Source: Gemmatimonadota bacterium
GTDB lineage: Bacteria > Gemmatimonadota > Gemmatimonadetes > Longimicrobiales > Gaopeijiaceae
DNA: 29,815 nucleotides
Reading direction: 5' to 3'
NCBI GenBank assembly: GCA_039589315.1
Contig: JBDHHQ010000061.1
Coordinates: 1 to 29,815, forward strand
In this document: one piece after another, positions 5,869-29,529 of the stretch
Numbering within the stretch: position 1 is the first letter of the stretch
Layout: every line of letters starts with the position of its first letter
Position numbers and translations under genes: made by a program
Notes under the pieces: generated by a model
The model's input: the letters and a program-made list of their open reading frames with translations, nothing else
Database searches by the model: none
What the model was told of the DNA's origin: nothing

Positions 5869-5882
5869 CGAGCCGTCCGGCT

Positions 5883-5975
5883 GGTTGTTGGCGGTGTTGC
5901 AGGCGGCTGATGTGCGGCCGCCGATACAGCCGAGCCGAACCGGCACGCGTGGATACCCGCTGCAAGCTAATCGCG
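5883..5975. other. Long imperfect hairpin between convergent genes (terminator-like or degenerate attC-like)
   Basis: TTGCAG(G)CGG 5897-5906 pairs with CCGCTGCAA 5957-5965 with one bulge; no U-tract and no canonical core. Confidence 0.3.
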
Positions 5976-5995
5976 GGTCGGTCGGTGCGGCCGAC

Positions 5996-8704: not shown

Positions 8705-9033
8705 CCGGCGTCCAGCGCTTCCTCGAGCCCGTCCCACAGGGTCATGAGCGCGAGCCGCGATTTGCGGAGCTCGGCCATGCCCTCGGCCGTGACACGCACG
8801 ATGCGGCGTGGCCGCCCGCCCCGGTGGGGGCTCGATTGCGACATCTCAGACGCGATCCAGCCCTTCGTCTCCATCCGGTCGAGGGTCACGTAGACCGAGC
8901 CTCGGGAGACCCTTCGCCCGATCCGACCCTCCAGCTCCTCCATCAGCCGCACGCCGTAGGCCTCCCCGCCCAGTCTCAGCGCCGCGAGTAGCAGCATCTG
9001 CTCGAACTCTCCGACGTAGCCTTGGCGACCCAT
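8701..9033 (-). CDS. PadR family transcriptional regulator
   Basis: MGRQGYVGEFEQMLLLA...AYG...GSVYVTLDRMETKG...RGGRPRR. It is the last 110 aa of track ORF 8701..9504. Confidence 0.92.
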   Translation of the reverse strand: MGRQGYVGEFEQMLLLAALRLGGEAYGVRLMEELEGRIGRRVSRGSVYVTLDRMETKGWIASEMSQSSPHRGGRPRRIVRVTAEGMAELRKSRLALMTLWDGLEEALDAG

Positions 9034-9352
9034 GACGTGATCCCGGTTAGAGGAGTTTTCCGACTTTGTATGATAAATACGGAAAGGTGAGGGGGCGAGT
9101 TTCAGGTGCGGCTGTTCCGGGCAAGGAGCCTTTAGACGCTGGACGAGGGGTTGGCCCCGTACGTCCAATGCCCTCGCGCCCAACCACGTTGAGACGGTCA
9201 CGTTCTCCGATCCCTCCAATCCCATTTCCCTACCGCCAACGCCGTGCGTTGATCGACCAGCGGGAGCGAAACGGCGGTGGCCGGTCGGCTCGTCGCCTGT
9301 GCTCCCGTCGGGATCGCCTGAAACCTCTCCTGAACTGTACTCGTAGAGTCTC

Positions 9353-9382
9353 TTGAGATATCCTCGCATTTGAAGCAATAAT
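9353..9382 (+). promoter_or_regulatory. Putative sigma70 promoter for the plus-strand padR-permease operon
   Basis: TTGAGA (9353-9358), 17-18 nt spacer, CAATAAT (9376-9382), in an AT-rich patch about 50 bp upstream of the start. Confidence 0.45.
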
Positions 9383-9428
9383 CGTGGAAGTGGAGTGGGA
9401 AACGCACCCCCAACGACGGAAGAGCCAC

Positions 9429-9767
9429 GTGGCCAAAGGTGATTACCTCGGTGAGTTCGAGCAGGTAGTTCTTCTAGCCCTGGCCCGACTGGGCGAAGAC
9501 GCACACGGCACCTTGATCCGGGGCGAGATCGCGGACCGCACGGGCCGGGAAGTCACCATCGGTTCGTTGTACAGCGCCCTGGACCGGATGGAGCGCAAGG
9601 GATACGTGAGCTCGCGTCTGGGCGATCCAACCCCCGAGCGGGGCGGCCGGGCCAAGCGCCACTACCGGCTCGAGTTGCCCGGCCTCCATGCCCTGAACCG
9701 CTCTCGCGAGATGCATGAGAGGCTCTGGGAGGGACTCGAGCTGGACCCCGAGCGGTTCGTCACATGA
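9429..9767 (+). CDS. PadR family transcriptional regulator
   Basis: GTG start; AKGDYLGEFEQVVLLA...GSLYSALDRMERKG...RGGRAKRHY; paralogous to 8701..9033. Confidence 0.92.
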   Translation: MAKGDYLGEFEQVVLLALARLGEDAHGTLIRGEIADRTGREVTIGSLYSALDRMERKGYVSSRLGDPTPERGGRAKRHYRLELPGLHALNRSREMHERLWEGLELDPERFVT

Positions 9768-12421
9768 GCACCCCGCCCCTCTCCCGCCGGCTTCTGCAGC
9801 TGACGCTGCCCCCCGACTACCGGGAGCAGCAGCTCGGCGATCTGGAGGAGGAGTTCCGGCACCGCTCGAAACGAGATGGGCCGGCGGCCGCGGCCCGCTG
9901 GTATCGCCGGCAGGCCCTGGGGTCCGTCGCCCCCGCGCTTCAGACGAGGTTCCGGCCTCGACCCAGACATGCCCGGCCCACACATACACGAGGAAGCAAC
10001 ACCATGGAGACCGTTCTCCAGGACTTCCGATACGGTGTTCGTTCGCTGATGAAGAGCCCGTCGTTCGCAGCCGTCTCCACCATCACGCTGGCGCTCGCCA
10101 TCGGTGTGAATACCGCCATCTTCAGCCTGGTCAGCGTGGTGATCTTCTCGGATCTCCCCATGGGCGACGCGGAGACCGTGGCGCTCATCCGAAGCTCGAA
10201 CCCCTACGTCGGGCACGAACGGGAGCCGCTGTCCTATCCGGACTTCGTCGATCTCCAGCAACAGGCTTCGAGCTTCGAGGCCCTGACGGCCATGGAGGGC
10301 GCCGGGTGGATCCTCACGGGGGACGGCGCGCCCCAGCGAGTCCAGGGGAACCGCGTCACCGCGAACCTCATGGAAGTGTGGAGGCTGCCACCAGCGGCTG
10401 GCCGTGCATTTCTGCCAGAGGAGGGCGCGCCCGGCGGCCCGAACGTGGTCATGCTCAGCTCCGGATTCTGGCGCCGCCGCTACGGGTCCAGTCCCGACGC
10501 CATCGGCTCGTCGATCCGCCTGGACGGCATCGAGCACACGATCATCGGCGTCGCCTCGCCCAAGATCGAGTTCGCCGACTTGGCCGAGGCCGATGTCTGG
10601 GCGCCGCTCCAGCTCGGCACGGGGGACCGGACCCGGGATGAGCGCACCCTCTTCGTGGCGGGCCGCCTGGCGCCCGGCGTAAGCGGCGGGGCGGCAGCCG
10701 AGGAGATCGCCCGCCTGGGTCAGCGCCTCTCCGAGGCCTACCCGGAGAACGAGGACTGGGAATACCGGTCCCAGCTGGTCCGGGAGGGGCTGATCGACGA
10801 CGAAGCCAAGTTGATCCTCACGCTCTTGGTCCTCAGCGTCGGGTTCGTACTTCTCATCGCGTGCGCCAACGTGGCCAACATGCTGCTGGCGCGCGCTACG
10901 ACGCGAAGCCGGGAGATGGCAGTTCGTTCGGCACTTGGCGCCAGGCGCGTCCGGCTGGTCCGCCAGCTTCTGACTGAGAGCTTCATCGTGGCGGCAGTTT
11001 CCGCCCTTGCAGGGCTCTTCCTGGCCCGGGCCATCCTGAACCTCATGGTCTGGATCACGGCGGGTCGGGAGGAGTTCTTCATCATGGCCGAGATGGACGA
11101 GCACGTCCTCGCCTTCACGCTGATCGTGACCATCCTGGCGCCGATCATCTTCGGGCTACTCCCGGCATTGCGCACCTCGGGGGACGACGTGGCCAGCACC
11201 ATCAAGGAGGGCAGTGTCCGGTCCGGCGGCGGGCGGAAGTCGGCCAGGCTCCGGAGCTTCCTCGCAGCCGGACAAGTCTCACTGGCGTTGATGGCGATGG
11301 TTCTGGCCGTGCTGTTCGTCCGCACGGTCATGGTGACGGAGCAGGAAGAGTGGGGCATGGACATCGAAGGAGTGATGACCGTTCAGGTGGAGCTCCCGGA
11401 GTCCGACTACGGGGACGACGGAGCGATCCGCCAGTTCTATCTGGACGCGGCGTCGCGATTCTCGAGTGTCGCTGGCGTCCAGGCCGCCGGCTTCGCCACC
11501 GGCCGGCCGTCGGTCGAGAATGGTCCAGTCCGGGAGTTCGAGATCGAGGGGCGGGTGGCAGGACACGACCTCGAGCGATCCATGGCGGATCTGTATTCCG
11601 TGAGCCCGGGATTCCTGGAGTTGATGGGAGTCCCGCTGATGCGGGGCAGGGACATCGGTGTGCAGGACACCGAAGCCGCGGTGCCGGTCGTGCTGGTCTC
11701 GGACGAGGCGGCAACGAGGTTCTGGGGCGACGACGACCCCATCGGGCAGCGACTCAGGGTGGGTGCTGCCGAGACCGATCCGTGGCTCCAGGTAGTGGGG
11801 ATCGTGGCCGATGTTCGCTCCAGCGGTGATGATCTGCGACCCGAGCCAACGCTCTACGTGCCCTTCTCTCAACGCCCGGCTCGTCAGGCCATCCTGTTCG
11901 CCCGGACATCCACCGAGCCCACCGGCGTGGCGCCGGCCCTGTCCGCCGCCATATGGGAGGTCGACCCCAACCTGCCCATCGACGACAGTCGGACCATGGA
12001 GCGGGTCTACCGGGACGGACAGGGGACTACGTTTGCGCTGTTGACCCTGTTCGTCACATTCGCGCTCTTCGCTCTGCTCATGTCGGCCATCGGGATCTAC
12101 GGTGTCATGTCATACATGGTGTCGCAGCGCACCGGCGAGATCAGCATCCGCATGGCGCTTGGCGCCGAGATCGGAAAGGTCCAACGCATGGTGCTGTGGC
12201 AGGGCGGCAGGATCGTCTTGCTGGGCGGGCTGCTGGGGCTTGCTGGGGCGGCGCTGCTGGCCCGGGCCGTCCGCAGCCTGATGTTCGGGATCAGCACCCT
12301 GGATCCGGTGACCTTCCTCGGGGTGCCGGCGGTGCTGATCGTGGTGGCGCTGATCGCCAACTACGTGCCCGCTCGGAGAGCCACGCGGATCGATCCCATG
12401 AGGGCGTTGCGGCAGGAGTGA
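9764..12421 (+). CDS. ADOP-type duplicated ABC permease with N-terminal permease-prefix extension
   Basis: GDLEEEF...WYRRQ prefix, then QDFRYGVRSL, IGVNTAIFS, LLIACANVAN, EMAVRSALGA, GIYGVMSY, DPMRALRQE. ATGA overlap with the PadR stop. Confidence 0.94.
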   Translation: MSTPPLSRRLLQLTLPPDYREQQLGDLEEEFRHRSKRDGPAAAARWYRRQALGSVAPALQTRFRPRPRHARPTHTRGSNTMETVLQDFRYGVRSLMKSPSFAAVSTITLALAIGVNTAIFSLVSVVIFSDLPMGDAETVALIRSSNPYVGHEREPLSYPDFVDLQQQASSFEALTAMEGAGWILTGDGAPQRVQGNRVTANLMEVWRLPPAAGRAFLPEEGAPGGPNVVMLSSGFWRRRYGSSPDAIGSSIRLDGIEHTIIGVASPKIEFADLAEADVWAPLQLGTGDRTRDERTLFVAGRLAPGVSGGAAAEEIARLGQRLSEAYPENEDWEYRSQLVREGLIDDEAKLILTLLVLSVGFVLLIACANVANMLLARATTRSREMAVRSALGARRVRLVRQLLTESFIVAAVSALAGLFLARAILNLMVWITAGREEFFIMAEMDEHVLAFTLIVTILAPIIFGLLPALRTSGDDVASTIKEGSVRSGGGRKSARLRSFLAAGQVSLALMAMVLAVLFVRTVMVTEQEEWGMDIEGVMTVQVELPESDYGDDGAIRQFYLDAASRFSSVAGVQAAGFATGRPSVENGPVREFEIEGRVAGHDLERSMADLYSVSPGFLELMGVPLMRGRDIGVQDTEAAVPVVLVSDEAATRFWGDDDPIGQRLRVGAAETDPWLQVVGIVADVRSSGDDLRPEPTLYVPFSQRPARQAILFARTSTEPTGVAPALSAAIWEVDPNLPIDDSRTMERVYRDGQGTTFALLTLFVTFALFALLMSAIGIYGVMSYMVSQRTGEISIRMALGAEIGKVQRMVLWQGGRIVLLGGLLGLAGAALLARAVRSLMFGISTLDPVTFLGVPAVLIVVALIANYVPARRATRIDPMRALRQE

Positions 12422-16114: not shown

Positions 16115-16906
16115 TCAATTGGCGAGCCCCAGGCGCCGGGCAATGGCCCGACCGCCGCGACTCTTGAGGCCAAAGGAAGCGCCACGGGATTCGGTGCCAC
16201 GGTAGACGATCACGTTCTCCGATTCCTCCAATCCCCAGTGCCGGGCGGCGCGTCCGACGACCACCGTCGCCTGATCCGCCTTCGCGCGAGGTACAAGCAC
16301 CTCTCGGGCGTAGCTCACAGCGAGCCCAGCCGACTGGAGGCGTGGGCGCTCCTTCCCTTTCAACCCAGACACCGAGGAGTGATAAGGTACGAGTTGCACC
16401 GCAGCCACGCGGCTGCCCAGCCACACCAGGGCTTCGGCGTAGGAGCATCCCCGCTGGCGTTCTGCCTCCTTCGCCAACTCCCTAAGCTTGCCGTTCCAGT
16501 AGCTGAAGCCCGGATGCCAGGCGAAGTCTGGCGCCAAGATGAAGAAGTCAGGGAGACCTTCGGGTGTCTCCTGACGGAGATTCGCGCCAAGAGCCTCGCG
16601 ATACCCTGGATTGCGCTCCTCCGCCAGATAGTCCATCGGCGTAAGGCCAGGGTTCAGGAGCAGGATGAAGACATCCGCTGTCCCCAAGTTTCCAAGGAAG
16701 GGAATGGGCAGGAGTCCGAGATGGACGCGCGGGTCGCCATGGAAATCGAACTCCGGGTGTGAACGGAACTCATGGAATGACGAGAGCACGACCGCACTCC
16801 CTGGGGAGCCCTCGAACAGTGGGCGGTCTGCCGGAAGCCAGAACGGAGGCGCCACCAAGGGACACAGGCGCCACGCGGCGATCAGCGGGTGGGAGGCCGG
16901 ATCCAT
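16115..16906 (-). CDS. Uncharacterised protein, probable uracil-DNA-glycosylase-like fold
   Basis: 263 aa; LLPIPFLGNL...VFILLLNPG...HPGFSYW...QLVPYHS...VVVGR resembles UDG-superfamily motifs. Confidence 0.65.
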   Translation of the reverse strand: MDPASHPLIAAWRLCPLVAPPFWLPADRPLFEGSPGSAVVLSSFHEFRSHPEFDFHGDPRVHLGLLPIPFLGNLGTADVFILLLNPGLTPMDYLAEERNPGYREALGANLRQETPEGLPDFFILAPDFAWHPGFSYWNGKLRELAKEAERQRGCSYAEALVWLGSRVAAVQLVPYHSSVSGLKGKERPRLQSAGLAVSYAREVLVPRAKADQATVVVGRAARHWGLEESENVIVYRGTESRGASFGLKSRGGRAIARRLGLAN

Positions 16907-17030
16907 TGTCAGAGGATGGGTGCATCTCGAGCATCCGGCAACCGTTGCTCAGTGAGACTTGCCTGCCGCCAAAGCCTGCTGGGCAGGGCGGTCATCGACT
17001 GGAGCAGCCGCTGTTGCCAATCGAACTGGC

Positions 17031-17143
17031 CGCCCACGAGGTCGACACAGCCTGCGCCGAGTATCGATTTGCCCTTGCGCCGGGCCTGCGGCGCATCTCC
17101 TGGCACAGGCCCGCACTGCCGTCCGCGCAGAACCCGGCTAAGT
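17031..17143 (-). mobile_element. Degenerate attC-like site G
   Basis: Minus strand: R''-like ACTTAGC contains the TAG stop of the upstream gene; CTGCGC/GCGCAG arms; inner GGGCCTG/CAGGCCC stem; R'-like GTGGGCG. Confidence 0.4.
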
Positions 17144-17410
17144 GAGGATGTTGTACGTTTCGTGTATCTCAGGCTCTGCGACCTGGGCACCGACGTCTTG
17201 GATGATCGGCATCAACACCTGACCAAACGCCTCGAAGTCTGCGAGGGATTCCCAGACATCGACCACCCCCACGGCGGACGGATCACCCCAACACGTGTGG
17301 AAAGTACGGCCGGTCGGAGCTCCAAACCCGGCCTCGTCAAGGCGGCGAATGATCTCGTCGTACTGTTCAGCGGAAGTCCCGTAGGGCTTGAAGATCACGG
17401 TGACGGACAT
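17138..17410 (-). CDS. Hypothetical protein, dimeric alpha+beta barrel (ABM-like)
   Basis: SD GGAGG before ATG 17410; QYDEI...FH...VVDVWESLADFEAF...LMP. Confidence 0.8.
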   Translation of the reverse strand: MSVTVIFKPYGTSAEQYDEIIRRLDEAGFGAPTGRTFHTCWGDPSAVGVVDVWESLADFEAFGQVLMPIIQDVGAQVAEPEIHETYNILT

Positions 17411-17494
17411 GGGGTCCTCCATGAGTCGGGGTTTCACTCGAAAGGCCGGCGCGCAACTCGGCTTCCGAGTGATTCGCCAACTCGGAAGGCGTCA

Positions 17495-17595
17495 CCTTGA
17501 CCTCTCTGCGATCCCGCGGCGCGGCTGAGATGGTGACCGCAAGCTCAGCGCGCGAGCCGGATACCTACCGCGACTGCAGCAATCGGTTATTAGAA
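17495..17595 (-). mobile_element. Degenerate attC-like site F
   Basis: Minus strand: TTCTAAT AAC CGATTGCTGCAGTCGCGG ... CCGCGCCGCGGGATCGC AGAGAG GTCAAGG. The arms pair with bulges; both cores are non-canonical. Confidence 0.6.
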
Positions 17596-17719
17596 GCGCG
17601 TCATGGTTCCCGCGCGACGCAGGAGCGGCATGTTTCACCACCCAGACCAAGCACGGAGTATCGATGGGAAGGGACCTGGCCCTGGTGGAAACTGCCTGCG
17701 TGGTGAGTTCGGGGGCCGG

Positions 17720-18244
17720 TTACCCTGTTGTCACACCCAACTGCTCTCGGAAGTCCCATAGATCGAGGTAGAAGCGCTCGCGTATGATCTGACCGCCCTG
17801 GAAGTGGATGAAGGACACACCGGCCAGAGAGATCCCGCGGCCCGTAGCGGGCAAGTCAGAATAGCCGCCCGTGTGCGTTCCGGTCATTGACCATTCGGCG
17901 GCTGCCCAACTGCCCTGCTGGATGAACCGCCGAAGCTGGAACCTCAGATCTGGAAACGCCGCTCGCTCTTCGATAACGAGATCCCTGAAGCGATCTCTGC
18001 CTACGACCGGAGAAGCGGAAGCTCCGTCGCCGGTTGGTTCCTCGAAGATGAACCCGTCTGCGAGGATTTCGTCGAGCTTGGCCGCGTCCCCACCCGACCA
18101 CACGGCCAACAACTCCTCGTAAGTCCGCTGCTCTTCAGTGATTGAATCGCGACTGCCCACTTCCTCCGTCTTCGTACCCGAAACACACGAAGTACATGCG
18201 ACAAGGGTAAGGGCGTAGATGAAGCTGTATCCTCGACTCGTCAC
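17720..18244 (-). CDS. SnoaL-like ester cyclase family protein, probable lipoprotein
   Basis: GTG start after AAAGGGGG; hydrophobic leader with Cys; AFPDLRF, MTGTHTG, PATGR. Confidence 0.85.
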   Translation of the reverse strand: MTSRGYSFIYALTLVACTSCVSGTKTEEVGSRDSITEEQRTYEELLAVWSGGDAAKLDEILADGFIFEEPTGDGASASPVVGRDRFRDLVIEERAAFPDLRFQLRRFIQQGSWAAAEWSMTGTHTGGYSDLPATGRGISLAGVSFIHFQGGQIIRERFYLDLWDFREQLGVTTG

Positions 18245-18294
18245 GATGGCCCCCTTTCGCTGTGCGCTACTAGAGCTGATCGGTGTTCCGCGCC

Positions 18295-18469
18295 TCCTCA
18301 CGACTTTGCGATTCCGCCACGCGACCTACCTGCTCGACCGCGCAGCGACGTGAACACGTGGGTCTGATCGGAGCTAGCGATCAAGGCTCATCGCTCCGAG
18401 GAGCGCCGGCGACGAGAGGCCTCCTGAGCCCATTCCCGGTCGGCGCGTCAGCAGCAACCGCTGTCAGGG
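18295..18469 (-). mobile_element. attC-like site A (repeat family A/B/C/D/E)
   Basis: Minus strand: R'' CCCTGAC (contains the TGA stop of the upstream gene), L'' GCGGTTGCTGC, L' GCGGAATCGC, R' GTGAGGA. Shares AGCGATCAAGGCTCATCGCTCCGAGGAGC (18376-18404) with B and C. Confidence 0.72.
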
Positions 18470-18898
18470 TGCGGGAGGATCGGATTGGCTGTGCCGTTTC
18501 CGGTAACCGCGCCTGACGAACAGAATGCCGAGAACGAAGAGAGGGAACCCCATGGCGATGCCGCCTCCCGCGTCTCCGCCCTTGATAGGAGCAACGACGA
18601 GGATCTCCATGCACCACATCGCGGCCCACCACAGGAGAAAGACGGCCCCTCCGATCAACTCGTTCTTCCACACCACGAGATAGCCGGCGAGGAACAGCAG
18701 AAACAGCAGCTTGACCAAGATCTGCTCCAAGTCGAACGGATCGAACGGGACTGTGGTACTGATCCAGTTTCCCTCAGGGGCTGGGATGAAGCTGACGACT
18801 ACGAACCAGAGGTATAGCAGACCATAGACCGAGGTCGCCATCAACAGTGACATGGAGCGTTTCCTTGGCTGCCGAGAGTTGTCGATTCGATTGGTCAT
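18464..18898 (-). CDS. Hypothetical membrane protein (about 4 TM)
   Basis: SD GGAGGTG before ATG 18898; four hydrophobic segments. Confidence 0.8.
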   Translation of the reverse strand: MTNRIDNSRQPRKRSMSLLMATSVYGLLYLWFVVVSFIPAPEGNWISTTVPFDPFDLEQILVKLLFLLFLAGYLVVWKNELIGGAVFLLWWAAMWCMEILVVAPIKGGDAGGGIAMGFPLFVLGILFVRRGYRKRHSQSDPPAP

Positions 18899-18954
18899 TG
18901 TCACCTCCCCTGGCATCACTCTGTCGATCTTCGGCCCACCACGAAGAGCCCGCG

Positions 18955-19064
18955 CTCCGACGACTCTACGGCTCTGCCCGGCGATCCACTAGCCGACTGC
19001 GTAGCGGCGGGAGCCTCCCGGGCCGATCCTAGTCCGCCGCGTCTGTGGCGATCGCTTGATTGCC
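18955..19064 (-). mobile_element. attC-like site D (shorter, diverged family member)
   Basis: Plus strand GGAGCCTCCCGGGCCG...GTCCGCCGCGTCTGTGGCGATCGCTTGAT matches the right half of B; minus-strand cores GGCAATC and GTCGGAG. Confidence 0.6.
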
Positions 19065-19072
19065 CCTTGGTC

Positions 19073-19109
19073 TTGACCCAATCCTATGCGTCTTAGCATA
19101 TTAGCTAAT
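19073..19109 (+). promoter_or_regulatory. Promoter and palindromic operator of the ArsR gene
   Basis: TTGACC 19073-19078, CATATT 19097-19102; inverted repeat TATGC-N6-GCATA 19085-19100; palindrome ATTAGCTAAT 19100-19109. Confidence 0.6.
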
Positions 19110-19110
19110 C

Positions 19111-19437
19111 ATGCAACCCCAAGATGATACCACTCGGATTCTCGGTGCACTTGCCAACGGCAGTCGACTGAAGATCCTGCGGTGGCTGCAGGAGCCGGAG
19201 AAGCACTTTCCCCCGCAGCGTGACGGAGATTTCGCCGAGGACGGCGTCTGTAGCGTCTATCTCGCCGACAAGCTCGGCGTTACGCAGCCGACCACGTCCA
19301 GGCATATGCGCCTCCTCGTCGACGCGGGACTGGTTCGTGCCAAGCGGAAGAAGGGCTGGACATTCTATCGCCGGGACGAGGTTGGATTACGCAAGGCGCA
19401 GGGACTCATCGCGGCGTCCATGGGAGTGCCAGCTTAG
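19111..19437 (+). CDS. ArsR/SmtB family transcriptional regulator
   Basis: ALANGSRLKILRWL...GVC...QPTTSRHMRLLVDAGLV...GWTFYRR. Confidence 0.92.
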   Translation: MQPQDDTTRILGALANGSRLKILRWLQEPEKHFPPQRDGDFAEDGVCSVYLADKLGVTQPTTSRHMRLLVDAGLVRAKRKKGWTFYRRDEVGLRKAQGLIAASMGVPA

Positions 19438-19508
19438 ATCGTCCTACCGGACGGCGAGCTTGGCGCGAAGTGGGCGATACTCGGTATCAATCGGAGGAGG
19501 AAGTGGGG

Positions 19509-19988
19509 ATGAAGACGACGACACGTACCCTGACCTTGTTCGGGACGATCTTGGCTTCTGTTCTGCTAGGCGCTCCAGCCGCAGCGCAGTCAAGCGCGTC
19601 GGAGAGCGAGGAAGACGCCATCACCGAGGAAGACGCCATCACCAGCGTTGCCCTGGACTACATCGAGGGATTCTACGAAGCCGACGCGGAACGAATGGCG
19701 CGCGCAGTGCATGCGGACCTCGCCAAGCGGATCGCCAGCCCAGGACCTGACGGTCGAAGGCGCCTCAGGCACATGGGCAAGTGGACCTTGGTCGAGAACA
19801 CCCGTCTGAATCCGCGACCGCGCCAGGTCGAGCTCAGAGATCGTGTGAAGATCCTTGACGTCTTTGGGGGTGCGGCCGTGGTCAGGGTTGATGCAGACAC
19901 ATGGGTCGATTTCCTGCAGATGGCGCGCATTGACGACAGTTGGGTCATCGTGAACGTGCTCTGGGAACTGCGGTCTTCAGAACGCTGA
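19509..19988 (+). CDS. Secreted NTF2-like (putative lumazine-binding family) protein
   Basis: SD GGAGGAGG; signal peptide ending PAAAQ; LDYIEGFYEADAERMARAVH, VDFLQMAR, WVIVNVLW. Confidence 0.85.
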   Translation: MKTTTRTLTLFGTILASVLLGAPAAAQSSASESEEDAITEEDAITSVALDYIEGFYEADAERMARAVHADLAKRIASPGPDGRRRLRHMGKWTLVENTRLNPRPRQVELRDRVKILDVFGGAAVVRVDADTWVDFLQMARIDDSWVIVNVLWELRSSER

Positions 19989-20099
19989 GGCACCGCGCTG
20001 TAGATCCGCGCGTTCTGCTTCCTGCCACACGGCGAGCAGAGGTCATTCGGCAGACGACCTCGTCATCGTCGGTGCCCGAAGCCCTCAGGACGGCTCTGC

Positions 20100-21278
20100 T
20101 CAGGGACGGTCTCCCCCAGGCGACAGCCGGATGATCCGTCCCGGATCGGGCGGATTCGGACTCCCTGCATCCACCGAGATCAGCAACCTGCCGCCCGGAA
20201 GTTGCGCAACATCGCGGACTCGCCCGACCCTCGCTAGCACGATCTCCGTCTCGTCGGTGGCCGGGTCGTAGCGGAGCAGGTGCTGAGGGTTGAGGGCACC
20301 CAACAGGAACGAACCGTTCCAGGACGGGAACTGGCTGCCCTCGACGAGGAGCAGCCCCGACGGTGCTACGCGGAAGTCGGGACCCCAGACCTTGGTCGGA
20401 AGGATCGAGAAGGCGGCGGCTTCCTCTTCCGTCATGTGGGAGACGGGTGTTTCGTCGTAGTTCAGCCCGTAGGAGAACAATGGCCAGCCATAGTTACCTC
20501 CTGCGGTGATGATGTTCAGCTCGTCGCCGCCCAAGGGACCGTGCTCGTTCTCGTAGAGCGTCCGCTGCGTGGCATCGTAGTGGAGCCCCTGTGGGTTCCG
20601 ATGACCGTACGACCAGATGGTCGAGGGTTCGGATGCTCCGGGGAGCAGCGGATTGTCCGACGGGATCTGCCCATCGGCCGTGAGTCGGTGGATCTTCCCC
20701 CGGTCGGAACTGAGGTCCTGGGGGCCCGGCTCAGGGTAGGGAGTGCCTCCCACACCGAACGACAGGAAGAAGCGGGATCCGTCCTCCCAGGCAATCCTCG
20801 AGCCGATTGAGAACTCGTTCGACTCGTAGATCACTTCCAGATTCCGGGCTCGGTTGTCTCGGAGCTCGAAGCGCGCCACCGCCAGATCGAACGCCGCGTC
20901 GTTGTACGCGATGTAGACGAGCCGGTTGTCCTCGAAATCGGGATGAAGGCTGACGTCGAGAAGGCCACCGAACACGTCGACGGTCTTGGACTCCGGGATA
21001 CCCTCGACCTCGGTCACCTCGCCGCCCACATAGTGATGGAGCGCCCCGCGTCGCTCCGCGAAGAGGAACTCTTCCTCGCCGATCACGGTGATCGCGTCGG
21101 GAATCCCGTACCCGGACGCGAGGATCTCGGGTCGCGTGATCCCGACGTCAGGGACGATGAGCTCGTCCGCCTGACAGGACGGAAGCAGCAACAGCGCGAC
21201 GGCGATCGGCCCCAGACGCTTGGGGATCACGCCCGTGATTCCCCTCAGTCCGTCGGCCGATACCGATTGACCACGCAT
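20100..21278 (-). CDS. PQQ-dependent sugar dehydrogenase (glucose/sorbosone dehydrogenase family), probable lipoprotein
   Basis: GGLLDVSLHPDF, GKIHRL, YGHRNPQG, EHGPLGGDELN, GNYGWP, APSG, GRVRDV; leader LLLLPSC. Confidence 0.9.
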   Translation of the reverse strand: MRGQSVSADGLRGITGVIPKRLGPIAVALLLLPSCQADELIVPDVGITRPEILASGYGIPDAITVIGEEEFLFAERRGALHHYVGGEVTEVEGIPESKTVDVFGGLLDVSLHPDFEDNRLVYIAYNDAAFDLAVARFELRDNRARNLEVIYESNEFSIGSRIAWEDGSRFFLSFGVGGTPYPEPGPQDLSSDRGKIHRLTADGQIPSDNPLLPGASEPSTIWSYGHRNPQGLHYDATQRTLYENEHGPLGGDELNIITAGGNYGWPLFSYGLNYDETPVSHMTEEEAAAFSILPTKVWGPDFRVAPSGLLLVEGSQFPSWNGSFLLGALNPQHLLRYDPATDETEIVLARVGRVRDVAQLPGGRLLISVDAGSPNPPDPGRIIRLSPGGDRP

Positions 21279-21823
21279 TTCTCTGTGTCCTTCGATCAAC
21301 GCCACATCCTCGAACGCCTAGAGCATCCGAGCGCCTACGGAGATGTCCCGCTTGCGATCAGCCAGGCGAGCATCCAGAAGCTCGCTCATCTGGACCCACT
21401 CCTGAAACGCTCAGCCGTTGTTTCTTCTGACACCGGGTGCGGCTTGAAGGGCCAGCGGCCTGAACCGGATCGCCTGCCAGCCAAGACCAAGAGCAGATCA
21501 AGAGCTGCGGGGTCGTGGGCGAGAGAGAAAGGACCGCATGAACGCTGGTTGCCCCACGCGTTACGAGCCTCTACGGTCACTGATCTGGGAGCTTCGCGAC
21601 CCGATCGTCGAGTGCCGGTGGCCCCTAGTCGCGCAAGAGGACTGCGGTGATTGACGATCTGGTCGCACTCACACGACTGGCCCAGGACTGCCGATCCAAC
21701 TCGGCGCGGGTTCAGGCGTACGCGGCAGCCGACGATGGTCCGGGCGCCCTCCAGAATGTACCGCGGAGTCTAGACCCCCGTCGGAACCACCAGCGCCGCG
21801 ACTCGGAATCCACCGTCCTCATC

Positions 21824-22852
21824 TCAACAGCGAACCACGACCTGCTGGAAAGCCCCCTGGCGACGCCGGGTAGCGTCCAGGGCCTCTCCAACATCGGCTA
21901 GTGGGTATTCGTCGACTTCGATGGTTGAGAGATCCAGTGTTCCCGCCGCAATCATGCTTAGCAGCTCAACGGTCTGGTGTCGTTCGAACCAAAGAGAGCC
22001 TCGGATCGTCAGGTCCATGCCAACGATGAGATCGGTGGCTACTGCCAGAGGTTCTTCGGTAACTCCTACCGCCACGAGACGGCCCGAGCGGTTCAGAGTT
22101 GTGAGCGCTGCCTGGATCGCCGAGGCGTCCCGGGCCTCAATCGCACTGAGGACGACGTCGAACGTTTGACCATTGGGCAGCGTCGTTCCGGCTTGAACAC
22201 GTGAGTTCAGACCGGCGATTTCTTCAAGGGCGTCCTTCCGGCGCCCCAACGCAAAGACGCTTCTGGCCCCCATCGCCAAGGCTACCAGAACGGCGCTCAC
22301 TCCGACGAGACCGGTCCCTCCAAGTACGGCAACCGCTTCGCCGGGTGCCAAACCGACCTTGGTGAAGGCGCCGTAGGCAGTACCCAGCCACCCCAGTCGG
22401 CAGAGGATCGCGTCTGAGACCGTGACGGCTTCCGGAATCGGTATGACGCATTCGGCGGGCAGCAACATTTGCTCCGCGAGAGCCCCATCGTGCCAACGGC
22501 GGAGCATTTCCGGGGAACGTTCACCAATCCCGAAGTTTCCGATGAAGCCGAAATCTTCGCCCCCCCCTCGCGTGGGGGATTGGTAGTAGCAGTCGCAGTA
22601 AACCCGCTGTCCTGCTTCGAGTCCGGTGACGTCAGAGCCAAGGAGCTGCACCGTGCCGACAGCATCCATGCCAGGAGTAAATGGCCTCGGTGGAGTCAAG
22701 TACTCGTCGGAACCATCAACGAGACCAGCTGCGAACGGCGCCAGGAATACTGTCTGTACGCCGACAAGTACGGTGCCGGGCTGTACCTCAGGCGTATCGA
22801 CTTCCTCGATGCGCACAGCAGTTTCACCCTCGTGCAGTCGGGCCGCTTTCAT
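21824..22852 (-). CDS. Medium-chain dehydrogenase/reductase (alcohol dehydrogenase-like)
   Basis: GroES-like N-domain (PFTPGMDAVG...GQRV), Rossmann GGTGLVG, LTIRGS. Confidence 0.88.
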   Translation of the reverse strand: MKAARLHEGETAVRIEEVDTPEVQPGTVLVGVQTVFLAPFAAGLVDGSDEYLTPPRPFTPGMDAVGTVQLLGSDVTGLEAGQRVYCDCYYQSPTRGGGEDFGFIGNFGIGERSPEMLRRWHDGALAEQMLLPAECVIPIPEAVTVSDAILCRLGWLGTAYGAFTKVGLAPGEAVAVLGGTGLVGVSAVLVALAMGARSVFALGRRKDALEEIAGLNSRVQAGTTLPNGQTFDVVLSAIEARDASAIQAALTTLNRSGRLVAVGVTEEPLAVATDLIVGMDLTIRGSLWFERHQTVELLSMIAAGTLDLSTIEVDEYPLADVGEALDATRRRQGAFQQVVVRC

Positions 22853-23191
22853 GGGGACCGTCCTAGATCGGCGAAGGGAGCGCTCATGTCGTCACTGTTC
22901 CCAATCTGCGGTCGAGGTATCCAGCCTTCAATTGTCCTTCAGGTCGCTCCATCCTGCCCTTCTCCACTCGGCGGCCAGCTCGGTGCGCGGGGCCTTGACC
23001 GCCCCCCTTGCGTGTAGCGGCAGGTGTGGCTCGAGGTCGTCATTGTTCGATCTCCTCGCGGTGTTCGGGGGGAGCTCGGTGTCTCTGGGCCTGTGACACT
23101 CGCCTGACACTCACCTTCGGACCACCCACGCTCGGACCACAGAGGTCTATTCGGTCTGAATCGCCCTAGCGAGCCGTGTCGGGCGGGGGAG

Positions 23192-23684
23192 TCAAATGCG
23201 AAGCAAGACGGTCAGCAACGCGGTCGCGGTCAGGCAAGCGAAGACGGTCCGCAGCCCGTTCCACCAGTTCCATCGGGCCTCGAACGCGTCGCGCCGTACG
23301 TAAGGGAGCTTGGTCCAGGACGTCGAGGTCGAGCGCCTGGAGCCGATTGTTCAGCGGCACGTTGATCGCGAACGTCGGGACTTGCACGCCCACCACGTAC
23401 GTGACCGCAGCGCCCAGTAGAAGCCATCGGTCGGCGCCGGCGAGCGAGCCGAAGGCCAGGGCGAGGGCCGCCACCACGGTCAGCACCGAGCCGACCCACA
23501 CCAAGAGGAACAGAGGATCGTTCTCCTGGATTACGCGGTCCATGACCTGGAACGCGCGGAGGAAGTCCCCGTCCGGAAGGCTCCGAATCCCGGGCATCAC
23601 GACGACGGCGAACGCGAACACGAGCCCCGCCGAGAGTGAGCAGAGGAGCGCGGCGGCGACCAGAGCGGCGTGAAGGAGATCCAT
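23192..23684 (-). pseudogene. DUF1772 / anthrone oxygenase-like membrane protein, frameshifted near 23292
   Basis: AGLVFAFAVVVMPG...FQVMDR...NVPLNNRL. The conserved tail DAFEARWNWWNGLRTVFACL...LRI* is in another frame, ending at TGA 23194-23192. Confidence 0.8.
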
Positions 23685-23698
23685 GATTCGGTTCACTC

Positions 23699-23810
23699 GC
23701 GGCTGCGGAGTGCGCCCTGTGAGGCGGAGCGCCGACTCCTCCTCGATTCATACGCGCAGACGAGGAAGGCAGCCCTAAGGAACCACGCTCCTCACACTCC
23801 TGCATACCGC
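23699..23810 (-). other. Long imperfect hairpin filling the intergenic space (attC-like arms, no recognisable cores)
   Basis: GCGGCTGCGGAGTG 23699-23712 pairs with CACTCCTGCATACCGC 23795-23810 with bulges; inner TGTGAGG..AGCG/CGCTCCTCACA stem; abuts the stop of the upstream gene. Confidence 0.5.
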
Positions 23811-24400
23811 TATGATGGGGAGCTAGGCTTGACCTGAATATTGCCGTTGTCGGGTTCCCTGAAGAAGCCGAGCACAAAGGGCGGCAAGCTAATGGCCTCA
23901 CAGCTTCCGGCAGCATCGCCGGGCACCCCACCAGGGTATGCCTCCGCAGGCGGGAAATCAGGGAGTATCTTGTCAGGAGAGGCGTTGGCTCCTTCGCCAC
24001 CATCAATCAGGAACATCAGCGCGTAGGGTCCAGCCCCCTCGGGAACGGTGGGCATGGGGAAGTCAGTACCGATAGCTAAGACGTCTGTACCAGCAACTTG
24101 AATCCAGGCCATGCAGACGATGTTTCCGCGAAATGTGCGGTCAAAAAAACTACTCATGAACATTGCGGTGCCCTTTACGGAGCCGTCTGCGCGCTGTTTC
24201 GCATTAAAGGAGAATTGGTCCTGACCGAATGGGAGGGTGATTTGACCGGCACCCGAGGCCATTTGTACGTATGGTCCGCCGTTTCCGATGTGGAAGCTGG
24301 GCCTCTGTGCGTCATCCAACGGCGAAAAGGGCCCCTCACCACAGGCAGCGACGGCAAGTGCGATCACCAACGACAGGGGGACGGGGAGAAACTGTCTCAT
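23810..24400 (-). CDS. Hypothetical lipoprotein
   Basis: SD AAGGAGG before ATG 24400; MRQFLPVPLSLVIALAVAAC lipobox; visibly lower GC than the left half. Confidence 0.8.
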   Translation of the reverse strand: MRQFLPVPLSLVIALAVAACGEGPFSPLDDAQRPSFHIGNGGPYVQMASGAGQITLPFGQDQFSFNAKQRADGSVKGTAMFMSSFFDRTFRGNIVCMAWIQVAGTDVLAIGTDFPMPTVPEGAGPYALMFLIDGGEGANASPDKILPDFPPAEAYPGGVPGDAAGSCEAISLPPFVLGFFREPDNGNIQVKPSSPS

Positions 24401-24929
24401 GGATGCCTCCTTGAACATGAGCGTAACTGCTCTTGCCGTCGGTGGCTCAGGAGTGGCGTTGGAGGCTGGCGTCCGAGGGGGGCGCGTCAGTCGCACAGCG
24501 TCGCTGGTGAGTCATCGGCGGGCGCGGGAGAGTCCCGTCGACCACCGCGACCATGCGGTGGCGCATCTAGGTTGTCAAGAAGTGGCGTGAACGCAACAGT
24601 GCTTGCAGGCACTCAAGGTCACCCGGCCGGTTCGCGCCGTCCAGAGGCCTGGCCCTCGTACGATCGCGATCATGGAACGCTTCGCCCGATCAGCCAAATG
24701 CAACGTGGGGATAGAATGGAACAAGCCGCTCCGATCGCCTGCCGAGTAGCCGCGTGCCGCGAGTGGTTGCGTCCAGGGAAGTTTGTGGCGCTGCGTGCGC
24801 AGCGGCGTCAGAAGGTCGCGGTGGGAAGCGTTGGATGGTAGAGAACGCCGGTGGCGAACAGCCGAAGCAACTCGTTCGACCGTGCGGTCGAACGGTAAGG
24901 ACCATCGGGGTCGGGACTGGGGTGTGAAG

Positions 24930-25622
24930 ATGGGCAAGTCATGGTGGGGAGCAGTCCCGTTCGGTCTGGCGGTCATCTTCGGTGGCGGGTGCGAGACAAT
25001 CGTCACGCCCGAGGATCCGAGTCGGCAGTCCAGGGTCTTCGGGTCGGGCGTCGTCGTGATGGAGAGCCGCGCCCTCGAGAGCTTCACAGCGGTCGAAGCC
25101 CGAGGTGGTGGGTATGAAGTCGTGCTGGAGCTGGCCCCGACACACGCCGTCGAGATCACCGCGGACGACAACCTCGTCCCGCTCCTGCGGACTGACGTCC
25201 GCGAGGGCAGGCTCGTCATTTCTGTGGATCCACAGCTGCGACTCGTCCCGACCGAGCCGATCGTCGTCCGAGTATCCGTTGCCGAAGTCTCCGAGCTACT
25301 CGCAAGCGGGGGGGTGTTGCTGAACGCCGAAGTGGGCGTCGTGCCCCGGCTGGCCATCGCCGCGAGCGGCGCGTCGCTGGTGGACGTCAACGGATCGGCA
25401 GAGCGGCAGGTCCTGACCATCAGCGGGGCGAGCGTTTACCGGGGACTCGATCTCGAGACCAGCGAGAGCGTGGTCATCGCGTCGGGTGTGAGTCTGGTCG
25501 AGCTGTGGGCGCACGACCACCTCGAGGTCGATGGCAGCGGTGTGTCCACGATTCGCTACCGGGGGCAGCCCACCGTGATCGCACGCGTGAGCGGAAGCTC
25601 CACCGTTAGCCCCATCCGGTGA
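24930..25622 (+). CDS. GIN-domain (DUF2807-like) lipoprotein
   Basis: Leader ending FGGGC; GSGVVVMESR, VEITADDNL, repeated SGAS/SGVS motifs, IRYRGQP. Confidence 0.85.
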   Translation: MGKSWWGAVPFGLAVIFGGGCETIVTPEDPSRQSRVFGSGVVVMESRALESFTAVEARGGGYEVVLELAPTHAVEITADDNLVPLLRTDVREGRLVISVDPQLRLVPTEPIVVRVSVAEVSELLASGGVLLNAEVGVVPRLAIAASGASLVDVNGSAERQVLTISGASVYRGLDLETSESVVIASGVSLVELWAHDHLEVDGSGVSTIRYRGQPTVIARVSGSSTVSPIR

Positions 25623-25650
25623 TGGGTGCGGTCGTTACCGCCTCCAGCGC

Positions 25651-25714
25651 CAGCGACGAGGAGCCTCCTGAGCCGAGTCCCGCTCACCGCGTCTCCAGCA
25701 GTCGCTTTCTAGAG
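25651..25714 (-). mobile_element. attC-like site E (R''/L'' half of the family repeat)
   Basis: GCGACGAGGAGCCTCCTGAGCCG...CACCGCGTCTCCAGCAGTCGCTTTCTAGAG aligns with the right half of B. Confidence 0.65.
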
Positions 25715-25842
25715 CGCATCGGCGGTCCCGTGGGAAAGGTCTCCAGCGGGGAGGTCGGTGGCTCTCAGCAGCTGATCCACACTCAGAGACATCCCAGCAG
25801 GTCCTCCCGTCCTATCCAAGGTGAGCAGGCTGACGCTGTGCG

Positions 25843-26241
25843 TCAGCCACCCGGCGGAGCGTCCCAGTTGAAGCATGCGGCGGACACGAGCCATTCTCCG
25901 CCCTGGTTCGTCGCGGTGGCCAGGAACTTCCCGTGGCCGGACACCTCCTGCCCCTCGTGCTGAAACGTCAAATCAAAGCTACCGCGGAGAGCGGCGAGAC
26001 CGGTGTCTCCGGTGGCCGCGTCAAGCGACTGTTTGAAGCTCACCATGGTCGGAAAAGCATCGAGGAATGCCTTGGCCTCCTCCCTCCCACTGAGCAGGGG
26101 ATGATCCTGCGGCATGTATGCGAAGTCCTCGGTGCACAACGCCATCGAAGCGTCCCAGTTCTGGGCGAGAGCCGCATCAACCCAATCCTTTTCGATCATC
26201 TCACGCAGTCGGGCTCGATCTGCATCGGTCAGTGCCGCCAT
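25843..26241 (-). CDS. NTF2-like DUF4440/YybH family protein
   Basis: SD GAGGAGG; CTEDFAYMP...GREE...GKFL...QGGEWLV. Confidence 0.85.
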   Translation of the reverse strand: MAALTDADRARLREMIEKDWVDAALAQNWDASMALCTEDFAYMPQDHPLLSGREEAKAFLDAFPTMVSFKQSLDAATGDTGLAALRGSFDLTFQHEGQEVSGHGKFLATATNQGGEWLVSAACFNWDAPPGG

Positions 26242-26292
26242 GGTCTTCCTCCTCGTATTTGGGGTTCGCTCGGACCCAGTGTGACGGGTGCG

Positions 26293-26466
26293 CTCTCACG
26301 GACCTGCGGTTCTGCTTGCGACCTACCTTCTCACAGCGTAGCGACGTGAACACCGTAGGTGCGAACACGGCAAGCGATCAAGGCTCATCGCTCCGAGGAG
26401 CAGGGGCGACGAGGAGCCTCCTGAGCCGTTCCCGTCCACCGCGTCCGCAGCAATCGCTTGATAGAG
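26293..26466 (-). mobile_element. attC-like site B (best preserved)
   Basis: Minus strand: R'' CTCTATC, L'' GCGATTGCTGC, L' GCAGAACCGC, R' GTGAGAG. On the plus (bottom) strand GCGGTTCTGC pairs with GCAGCAATCGC with one extrahelical C and one G-T pair. Confidence 0.78.
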
Positions 26467-26573
26467 CGCAGCGCGGTTCGGGATTCTGGGGCTAATGCGA
26501 CAACGCGTGTCCAGCTCGGGACTGCTGGTGGCGCCTCCCGCCTCCCTCAGCTCGGAGTGACCCGCTAATGGAT

Positions 26574-27599
26574 TCACGCAGGCCAGGTGTCCGCCAAACG
26601 ATAGCCCTCCGGCCACGGGTCTTCCGGATCCAGCATGTGCTGGTGTGTCCCGGTGATCCACGCGCGCCCGGTGATCGAGGGAATGACCGCCGGTTTCTCG
26701 CCGACCGCGGCCTCGGCTTCGATCTGACACTGGAACTCGGAACCGATGATCGAGCGCGCGATGTATCGGTCGCCGATGCCCATCTCGCCACGCGCGTGGA
26801 GCGCGGCCATGCGCGCCGAGCAGCCGGTACCGGTCGGTGATCGGTCGATCTTCCCCGGCCGGATGGCGACCGCGTTGCGCCCACTGAGTACTCCGCCTTC
26901 TCTGACCAACGGCTGCGTGAACTGGCAGAACGAGACGTGGTCCCAATCCGGATTCTCAGGGTGGCGGAACCCGAGTTGCTCGTTCGCCGCAGCCGTGATC
27001 CTCACCCCGAGCTCTGCCAGCTCGCGCGCATTGTCAGGAGCGATCTCGAGCCCCGATGCGGTAACATCCACGATCACAAAACTATCGCCTCCGTAAGCGG
27101 TATCGACCGTCAGCAGACCAAGCCCCGCGACCTCGAGCGGCGCAGCAAGTCTGTCCGCAAATGAGGGCACGTTGGTGATGGTGATGCGCTCGACTCTACC
27201 ATCCTTACAAACGGCCCGCGCCTCGACGAGCCCGCCGGGAGCCTCGAGTACTAGCTGTGTCTCGGGCTCTTCCATCGGGATGATGCCGGTCTCGAGCAAC
27301 ACATTCACGACACAGATTGAATTCGATCCTGACATCGGCGGAGTATCGGCCGGCTCCATGATGATAAAGCCCATCTGCGCGCGCGGATTGATTGGCGGCA
27401 CGAGCAAGTTCACGTGGCGAAAGACGCCACCGCGCGGCTCGTTGAGGACGAAATTGCGCAGAGTCTCGTCGGATTCGATCGAGGCACGCTGTTCCCAGAG
27501 CGTCTCCCCGGAGGGAGGCGCAACGCCGCCGACAATGACATCGCCGACCTCGCCTTCGGCGTGGCAACTGACAACGTGGATGGTCTGGGAGCTACGCAT
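26574..27599 (-). CDS. Proline racemase superfamily protein, Ser/Thr-dyad type (probable trans-3-hydroxy-L-proline dehydratase)
   Basis: HAEGE, EPRG, MSGSN and DRSPTGTG replace the MCGH / DRSPCGTG of Cys-Cys racemases and epimerases. Confidence 0.88.
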
Positions 27600-27650
27600 C
27601 GGGATTCTGAGCTAGGTAGATGACACCGCGTGCGGAAGCTATAAGCTGCG

Positions 27651-27801
27651 CTCTAACGGCCTGCGACTCTGACTTCCTTCGCCTTATAGATGCTGCGCGA
27701 CCTATGGGCTGACACCGCGCAGCGACGTGAACACCGTAGGTGCGAACAGAGTAAGCGATCAAGGCTCGTCGCTCCGAGGAGCACCGCGACGAGGAACTTC
27801 C
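27651..27801 (-). mobile_element. attC-like site C (R' and central part; R'' half not found)
   Basis: Minus strand ends CAGAGTCGCAGGCC GTTAGAG, the only intact GTT core found. Shares AGCGACGTGAACAC and the 29-bp block (27754-27782, one mismatch) with A and B. Confidence 0.7.
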
Positions 27802-27908: not shown

Positions 27909-29529
27909 ATGAGTACCCTTCGAATCGCGTTGTCCTTTGCCGCCGTGCCGCTCATGGTGCTGGCGTGTGGTCCAGCGTCGTCACAGGACGAGCGCTCCAC
28001 GTCCCTATTCGAGCTCGCCCTCGTCGGCCGGCTCACCACCGACGGAGGAGCGACCCGCGGAGTCGCTTGGGGCGACTACGACCAGGATGGCGACCCGGAC
28101 CTTGCCCTGTCGAACACTGCTGACCAATGGAACGCGCTGCACCGAAACGATGCCGGTGCGTTCATCAAGCTGACGGACCGGGGCCGGTCGTCGTGGGCTG
28201 CTTACGTGGCTGCGGCAGGCCGGGCGGAGGGCGTCAGCTGGGTCGACTTCGACGGTGACCGAGACCTGGACCTCTTCGTCGCGACTCGCGGCCCCCAGGC
28301 GAACATGATGTTTCGAAACGAAGGTCCCGATTCTCTGGTCAGAGTGACCGAGGCCGACTTCGCTCGGGGTGCCCTGGGCGCGTCCATGGCGTGCTGGGCC
28401 GATATCGATGGCGACGGCTGGCTCGACGTCTTTCTGGCAGGTTACGGGGGCGACCCGAATCGGCTGTTCAGGAATCAGGGCGGCACACTCGTCGAGCTCG
28501 TGAGCCACCCCCTCGCCTACACGAGCGCGGCGCGATCCTGTGCATGGGGAGATCCCGACGATGACGGGCTCCCCGACCTTTACGTGGGCAATGCGCGGGA
28601 GCCGAACGACCTGTTCCGGAACCGCGGAGCATGGCGTTTCGACCGCCAGACGGAGGGACACGTCGTCACGGACGTGGGTTACTCGTACGGTCTGTCGTGG
28701 GCCGACTTCGACGGCGACGGGGCGCAGGATTTGTTCGTCGCCAACTTCGATACCCTCAACCGTATCTACCGGAACGACGGTTCGGGAAGCCTTCAGCCGG
28801 TCCTCGACGGTGTGCTGGCGACGGAGGAGGGAGGTGCTTCGAAAGGCCACACCTGGGGAGACTTCGATCTGGACGGCCGGCTCGACCTGTTCGTCGCGAA
28901 CGGCACCTACGGGCCGGATATGCGCAACTTCGTATATCGGGGACTCGGCGGGGGCCGCTACGTACGGGAGTTGAGCGGGGCCTTCACCGAGCATGCGGAC
29001 ACGTCCGCGGGTGCGGCTTGGGCCGACTACGATCGGGATGGCGACCTGGACGTCTTCGTCGCGAACTGGGGCAGCAGTGATCAGATCAACCGCCTATACC
29101 GAAACTCGACCTCCGAGAACCTCGGGAGAGGTTGGCTGGGCCTTTACCTCCACGGCCTCGGTGCGAACACTCACGCGTGGGGCGCAAAGGTCGTGGTCGT
29201 GGCGAATCCCGGCACGGGCTCCCGACGGATGATGCGATGGCACAACCCCGTCACGGGATACGCGAGCCGTCGTGGTCGTGGCGAATCCCGGCACGGGCTC
29301 CCGACGGATGATGCGATGGCACAACCCCGTCACTGGATACGCGAGCCAGAATGAACCGCTCCTGCACTTCGGGCTGGGATCGGCCACTGCTGCTGACAGC
29401 CTGATCGTTCACTGGCCATCCGGCTCGATCGACGTTCATACCGACGTGCCAAGTCGGGCTTTCTGGGATCTCTTCGAAGGCGGTGAGCTTCGTTCGAGAG
29501 GCTCAGATCCGAGCGGCGGCCCGACCTGA
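27909..29529 (+). CDS. CRTAC1-like FG-GAP repeat protein with C-terminal ASPIC/UnbV domain, frameshifted by a 79-bp duplication
   Basis: Lipobox-like VLAC; seven W(G/A/V)DxDxDGxxD(L/V)-type repeats. The ASPIC tail GYASQN...LHFGLG...VHWPSG is in ORF 29272..29529. Confidence 0.88.
29190..29347 (+). repeat. 79-bp tandem direct duplication with one mismatch
   Basis: 29190-29268 equals 29269-29347 except G29255 vs T29334. Confidence 0.97.

Follow-up and report, generated by a model that had tools for sequence, protein, structure and literature searches.

Two clusters of eroded attC sites on an integrase-less contig of a Gemmatimonadota bacterium

Contig JBDHHQ010000061.1 (C61) of the Gemmatimonadota genome assembly GCA_039589315.1 (G000; a 6.67-Mb draft of 288 contigs, 67.5% GC, 95% complete and 5.07% contaminated), whose entire 29,815 nucleotides form the window analysed here, carries imperfect inverted repeats between small genes from position 16115 to 27801. 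An earlier note had taken eight of these repeats, lettered A to H in order of rising coordinate, for attC sites of an integron cassette array that has lost its integrase. We conclude that the region very likely holds eroded attC sites in two small clusters, one of H-G-F and the other of D-C-B and perhaps A, which bound four or five gene cassettes. The cassettes were likely inserted long ago by the genome's own integron integrase (IntI), encoded on another contig, and are predicted to be locked in place now. The region is a decayed cluster of attC sites without an integron integrase (CALIN), an element of a known kind. We read it in this way because a covariance model trained outside the window recognises its sites, because the cassette ends are complementary, because intact homologous sites lie beside intI genes, and because an IntI is encoded elsewhere in the genome. 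For comparison we used the sister genome (G001), a complete relative (G010) and a further relative (G016).

attC sites in the window

A covariance model (R1) was built from 23 sites, all outside the window, 14 of them from relatives and nine from other contigs of the source genome. Among these training sites both sides change in 10 of 23 pairs, a number that relatedness inflates and that none of 500 shuffles reached; in relatives, 92 sites aligned to the model have paired bases in 92% of cells. When the source genome was searched with R1, 150 of 5821 candidates were scored and 31 hits were obtained, of which 28 were full-length and three, being partial, were dropped. The earlier note had proposed a covariance-model scan, with a model built from sites of the array itself. 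In the window the scan with R1 matched four sites over the full model length, at 61.2 bits for G, 58.7 for B, 43.8 for C and 26.0 for D, and one site, H, in part (18.1 bits), all on the plus (bottom) strand, and the best remaining match scored 11.8 bits. A scan with Rfam gave nothing relevant, only two matches at chance level. Plain-hairpin folding of sites A, B and D was no better than that of shuffled sequences (z −0.2 to +1.1), and minimum free energy compared with shuffles is uninformative, as even an intact site of the complete relative reached only z −1.6.

Sites C, G, H and F, which like B and D run with the array on the minus strand, belong to one genus-specific long family of repeats of about 175 nt. 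This family gave 43 nhmmer hits (E < 0.1) on 16 contigs of the source genome, with ten on C75, seven on C73 and four on C61, and its copies are clustered and co-oriented. Site G (26293-26466) is a full-length member of 174 nt with mutated cores (ATC and GTG), and site C (18295-18469) is a full-length member of 175 nt in which both cores are mutated. Site H (27651-27801; R1 match at 27695-27790) is the right part of such a site: its R′ GTT is intact, R″ and the left L″ arm are gone, and additional bases lie between the stem and R′. Site F (25646-25714, to 25718 by nhmmer) is a left half, equivalent to the left 72 positions of the family (nhmmer E 2.8e-9), and ends abruptly against a DUF2807 gene. 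The other two sites are shorter and likewise have both cores mutated. Site B (17495-17595; R1 match at 17500-17595) measures 101 nt and is of a type with about 28 matches in the complete relative, the best of them 83-85% identical and eight of them downstream of the intI of that genome; site D (18955-19064) is an eroded attC of 110 nt.

The sites show the spacing R″-5 nt-L″...L′-8/9 nt-R′. As extrahelical bases, the L″ arm of 22 of the 23 training sites has a C and, at a distance of seven columns from it, an A or a T. T-N6-C and A-N6-C are types of excisable attC in the accessible text of PMC3053210. The spacing and a bulged base in the L stem, both pointed out in the earlier note, are real, the bulged base being a C. 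Its other observations on site anatomy fared less well. Stop codons had been said to overlap R″ at A and G; they do so at A and C, and at G the gene ends 108 nt earlier. G-T pairs had been said to favour the bottom strand, and the 23-site alignment has 26 G-T and 29 A-C cells and thus no such bias.

Two of the eight repeats were not confirmed as attC sites. Site A (17031-17143, minus strand) is at best a relic left arm; it scored neither in R1 nor in end-weight matrices, and its right part derives from a fragment of a multi-copy protein-coding gene family. What speaks for it is a stop codon on an R″-like box and a cassette-end match of 5/8. Site E (23699-23810, no orientation assigned) is an intergenic inverted repeat and not an attC: it likewise scored neither in R1 nor in end-weight matrices, its equivalent in the sister genome is without attC, and its left arm is there the retained 3′ flank of the same gene (the one at 23810). 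Neither R1 nor the end-weight matrices found an attC between 19065 and 25645, and a hidden site considered after the glucose/sorbosone dehydrogenase gene, near 20000, scored nothing.

A cassette that enters at the GTT crossover begins with an R′ and ends with an R″ that both belong to it. From this layout it follows that the bases after GTT should pair with the left flank of the next site. We compared positions 6-13 of consecutive sites less than 3 kb apart. Matches from R′ to the next R″ averaged 4.9 of 8 (n=31), as against 3.1 within sites (n=35) and 3.0 at random. None of 20000 permutations reached the observed value in the source genome (n=10) or the complete relative (n=13); in the sister genome p was 0.043 (n=6), and the further relative provided just two pairs. 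In the window the matches were 8 (H-G), 7 (G-F), 6 (D-C), 7 (C-B) and 5 (B-A) of 8 against a null mean of 3.6, and their sum, with a one-base shift allowed, was reached by none of 200000 draws; the B-A value would not suffice by itself. Because the ends pair across the gene and not within the repeat, the repeats are attC sites and not miniature inverted-repeat transposable elements (MITEs) or repetitive extragenic palindromes (REPs).

The DNA bounded by sites extends from 27657 to 25646 in the upper cluster, where it comprises a dehydratase and a SnoaL cassette, and from 19064 to about 17138 in the lower cluster, where it comprises a DUF7670-like, a SnoaL and probably a 94-99 aa gene. Whereas about 12 kb had been taken to be built from cassettes, only about 4 kb in total is so bounded. 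The two clusters lie 6.6 kb apart, and the interval, which has seven genes and no site inside, is made up either of cassettes that have eroded completely or of ordinary genes that were inserted there.

Site decay, the integrase and alternative origins

We take AAC and GTT to be the core consensus of attC. Both cores are intact in none of the four full-length sites of the window, in 7 of 28 sites of the source genome and in 82 of 92 sites in intI-adjacent arrays of relatives; 10 of the 11 scorable core triplets of the window (A included) are mutated. The predicted pairing probability of the R box is at most 0.01 in the window, compared with 0.45-0.99 in six of seven sites of the complete relative that are free of insertion sequences (IS). 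The window sites are relics that would likely no longer recombine, and mobilisation in trans is unlikely because the cores of all full-length window sites are mutated. The array had been described as integrase-less and as eroded or rearranged; the mutated cores bear out its erosion, and genes on the opposite strand and genes without sites are present.

No tyrosine recombinase was found on C61, which ends 2.0 kb upstream of H, in keeping with the absence of intI reported before, and an IntI elsewhere in the genome, suggested at the same time, is encoded on contig C97. This 322-aa protein (C97:385-1353, no stops) scored 342.6 bits against TIGR02249 (cut-off 265), aligns along its length with the solved integrase 2a3v and has the catalytic residues. 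The sister genome has an IntI at the same locus, of which the first 91 residues, 79% identical, are followed by the contig end. The shared locus indicates that the C97 IntI is native and sedentary; contamination as its source was rejected, the earlier apparent absence from the sister genome being a contig break. The candidate attI is a GTT box that follows the intI stop at a distance of about 190 nt.

Other arrays in the source genome are spread over about 15 contigs. Through an overlap of 114 nt, contigs C75 and C73 join into a co-oriented array of about 39 kb, which has a reshuffled counterpart in the sister genome. This is the likelier main array. The C75/C73 array (L019, L020) includes many half sites, sites split by inserts of 115-125 nt and a cassette for a 722-aa TonB-dependent receptor under purifying selection. 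Many cassettes in L021, L022, L019 and L024 encode members of a recurring family of 220-280 aa proteins, which carry a membrane segment at the N-terminus and match nothing in Pfam.

The window clusters could have arisen when IntI recombined the folded bottom strands of circular cassettes at a site away from attI, or, alternatively, when a block was separated from the main array in a rearrangement. Point mutations, deletions and the insertion of unrelated genes in either orientation would then have eroded the sites, an erosion to which attC-targeting elements of the IS110 family may have added in other parts of the genome.

Several points weigh against a cassette cluster deposited away from the integrase. 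Five genes between the clusters are without any site, and neither cluster begins with an attI or an insertion scar. The right end of C61 overlaps no contig, so the physical distance from intI is unproven. R1 is a custom model and not IntegronFinder's, and it rewards family sequence besides structure; the anchors of the window end test were set by hand, and a common GCGC motif raises wrong pairings too (H to F, 7; G to G, 7). Frameshifts in the assembly could be assembly errors.

The cores might instead have been knocked out by selection that fixed useful cassettes, that is, by domestication. Genes are conserved while nearly all window core triplets are mutated: the ratio of nonsynonymous to synonymous substitution rates (dN/dS) against the sister genome is 0.11-0.25 for five genes, compared with 0.06-0.13 for two neighbouring genes on contig C15, so that the window genes compared are under purifying selection. 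Moreover, of 19 long sites, just 11 retain one A of AAC and just 10 the other. The excess of change in the cores is small, however, with 81 of 114 core columns conserved in these 19 sites (71%) and interior conservation at 78% (A/T) and 85% (G/C). As core conservation is only slightly below that of the interior, relaxed selection fits better than a targeted knock-out; furthermore, there is overlap between AAC and stop codons, and in a 67% GC genome A/T bases erode. The decay looks neutral rather than selected, and we consider domestication unlikely.

We also find it quite improbable that the cluster forms the distal end of a complete chromosomal integron, split from intI only by assembly. On the side on which relatives have their arrays, C97 extends for just 385 nt beyond the intI stop, and C61 ends 2.0 kb upstream of H, where it overlaps no contig. 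Yet a search for a contig-end link found neither overlap nor similarity between the ends of C97 and C61, and the right end of C61 truncates a gene at its start. A better candidate for that position is the larger C75/C73 array, which has the counterpart in the sister genome and begins at the end of an IS. In addition, erosion of the sites in the window exceeds the average for the genome, and the complete relative has site clusters far from its intI. It is hardly credible that the repeats are an attC-like family of the MITE or REP kind, inserted between unrelated genes: the spread of 43 hits over 16 contigs, some solo copies and an opposite-strand upstream gene at 5 of 23 sites would suit it, but the end pairing spans the gene while the within-site match is at the random level, clustered copies are co-oriented, intact copies are arrayed beside intI (91 of 92 downstream), and several interior families have only attC ends in common.

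Gene order, which the earlier note had proposed to compare with relatives, is not fixed. Five genes of the region lie at five unrelated loci in the sister genome, and the lower-cluster genes have no DNA match there. Gene order cannot single out cassettes, because non-cassette genes of the window, namely the PadR-permease module of its left flank, were relocated in the sister genome as well; we therefore rejected its change, as unspecific, as proof of cassette mobility. Beyond gyrA-like and saccharopine dehydrogenase-like genes (L064:4514-5714 and C15:12155-15148), attC remnants are found in both genomes together with different genes, and the same L064 locus of the sister genome carries the window's dehydratase gene.

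Genes of the region

The first cassette of the upper cluster carries a trans-3-hydroxy-L-proline dehydratase gene (26574-27599, minus strand; NF047722, 634.5 bits, cut-off 550). Between the two ends of the cassette, 12 of 13 nt are complementary, and the dN/dS of the gene against the sister genome is 0.11. The closest homologues of this dehydratase, in five other genera, have no adjoining attC, and the cassette is a possible case of change between chromosomal gene and cassette, with no direction implied. The second cassette of this cluster, which has the G-to-F end match of 7/8, carries a SnoaL-like/DUF4440 gene (25843-26241, minus strand). In the lower cluster, the gene for a DUF7670-like membrane protein (18464-18919, minus strand; match below cut-off) ends with a TGA that overlaps R″ of C. 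It is followed by a SnoaL-like cyclase gene (17720-18301, minus strand), whose true start is likely downstream of 18301 and whose cassette has the C-to-B end match of 7/8, and by a probable cassette gene of 94-99 aa and no family (17138-17437, minus strand), the TAG stop of which overlaps the R″-like box of A. Beyond the last site lies a gene of no known family with a low G+C content at third codon positions (GC3) (16115-16906, minus strand), the cassette status of which is open to doubt.

Between the clusters, the DUF2807 gene next to site F (24783-25622) lies on the plus strand, opposite to the array, and has an 89% copy on contig C11. This paralog (L025, C11:13590-14653) lies in antisense orientation, flanked by a broken attC on one side and by the end of an IS on the other. 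Its junction with the broken site is that of the window copy as well, and dN/dS between the two copies is 0.60. Four minus-strand genes then follow without attC: one of no known family (23810-24496, no attC on either side), an anthrone oxygenase (DUF1772-like) gene with a frameshift near its 3′ end in the assembly (23166-23696), a Zn-dependent alcohol dehydrogenase gene (21824-22852) and a glucose/sorbosone dehydrogenase family gene (20100-21305). A plus-strand block (19073-19988), again opposite to the array, abuts site D and comprises an ArsR-type regulator gene (19111-19437) and a lumazine-binding-2 gene (19470-19988). A promoter-like site in this block matches at chance frequency, and in a scan of nine array proteins for anti-phage families only a generic ArsR/Csa3 match was obtained.

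The GC3 of all 12 called genes of the region of at least 300 nt is at or below the 17th percentile of the genome, and the flanking sulfatase and FG-GAP genes are likewise low in GC3. The FG-GAP repeat gene (27909-29529) has its frame broken by a 79-nt tandem duplication (29190-29347), and pieces of it, 96-98% identical, lie at both ends of contig C166, where they could be a recent duplicate, a strain variant or an assembly artefact. On the left side of the window, a 130-aa open reading frame (603-995) has a 21-nt (7-residue) tandem repeat and no Pfam or NCBIfam match. Positions 1789-12421 hold PadR and ABC-permease modules and, as judged from sequence, a Ser/Thr kinase with a beta-propeller, all from large paralog families.

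Family integrons and known systems

An IntI match was present in 75 of 300 genomes of the family searched. We examined 34 intI loci, 20 of them hand-chosen and cut with more downstream DNA and 14 with 1.5-kb flanks; R1 gave hits at 20 of the 34, and 91 of the 92 hits were downstream of intI in the same direction. PMC3053210, in its accessible text, gives K209, Y210, W219, P232, H240 and H241 as contacts of the extrahelical bases. The C97 IntI keeps the K, W and P, has D for Y210 and has R-S for H240-H241. Loss of the tyrosine and the histidine pair as a sign of decay of the C97 copy was rejected, the trait being found family-wide: among 44 distinct IntIs of the family (76 genomes with a match), K-Y is kept in five, H-H in ten and both in two, as compared with 62 of 83 (K-Y) and 70 of 83 (H-H) in a comparison set mostly from other phyla. 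All cores are intact beside such IntIs at L194 (14/14), L192 (13/13) and L208 (11/11), and these intact arrays suggest that family IntIs lacking Y210 and H240-H241 may be active.

We tentatively propose, at somewhat short of even chances, that the window cluster is what remains, as a fossil, of a satellite of an integron type that occurs throughout this family of Gemmatimonadota, in which intI faces the array and the integrase recombines long, bulged-C attC sites without the tyrosine and the histidine pair proposed to clamp the extrahelical bases. If so, attC structure would be read in a different mode, and the platform would have been retired by loss of sites and not of the enzyme. Natural IntIs that lack Y210 and H240-H241 beside intact cores would be ready-made variants for the study of extrahelical-base recognition.

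In the complete relative, one IS110-family element begins at the R′ of ten sites, and the four copies compared are identical over 1572 nt. The copy at L031:4723-6294 is antisense at the R′ GTT of an attC. In the source genome, a 70% identical transposase and the ends of this R′ element are found at C240:2321-3514 and C154:1307. A second IS110-like element (L060:9567-10711; family judged from sequence alone) replaces R″. Traces of it in the source genome lie at C75:22211-22313 and C11:13672-13705, with a 94% identical end where C75 breaks. Neither element is present in the window, and ends of both lie on other contigs of the source genome. A tyrosine recombinase and a Y2 (IS91-like) transposase form a pair between intI and the first attC of the complete relative (L031:1742-3805), with further copies near 650 kb.

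In the literature searched, which did not extend to survey supplements and subscription journals, Gemmatimonadota integrons appear just as a name in a list, in the accessible text of PMC8618304, and none of the 11 taxon models of PMC8352920 is for Gemmatimonadota; these arrays may already be included in genome tables of the surveys. The window itself is ordinary, and its value is that of an entry point to the integrons of a scarcely described phylum; the integrase traits of the family are a more interesting lead than the window.

With CALINs, as PMC4889954 presents them in the text accessible to us, the region shares at least two co-oriented attC sites, no intI on the contig and an IntI elsewhere, and both origins proposed there (insertion at a secondary site and rearrangement) fit; it differs in that the cores are mutated in all full-length sites. 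Since the gap of 6.6 kb exceeds the clustering distance of 4 kb given in that source, the region would count as two CALINs. Off-site insertion of cassettes is described at attG (10.1101/2022.09.11.507474, accessible text). Sedentary chromosomal integrons with satellite CALINs, such as those of Xanthomonas (PMC12444791, accessible text), are similar in their fixed intI locus, lineage-specific attC family, CALINs elsewhere and stabilised arrays, but their stabilisation is ascribed in that source to inactivation of intI, whereas here intI is an intact open reading frame and the sites have decayed. The IS1111-attC elements of the IS110 family (PMC11187229, accessible text) resemble the two IS110-family elements that occupy this attC family in antisense orientation, at R′ in one case and in place of R″ in the other, with the difference that the window has none. 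The placement of nearly all sites downstream of intI, in the same direction, recalls Treponema, in which intI is transcribed toward attI (PMC3607928, accessible text), and archaea, in which attI lies downstream of intI (PMC9668308, accessible text). The GTT box after the C97 intI stop is another likeness to these layouts, from which the present family differs in phylum and in having IntIs that mostly lack Y210 and H240-H241.

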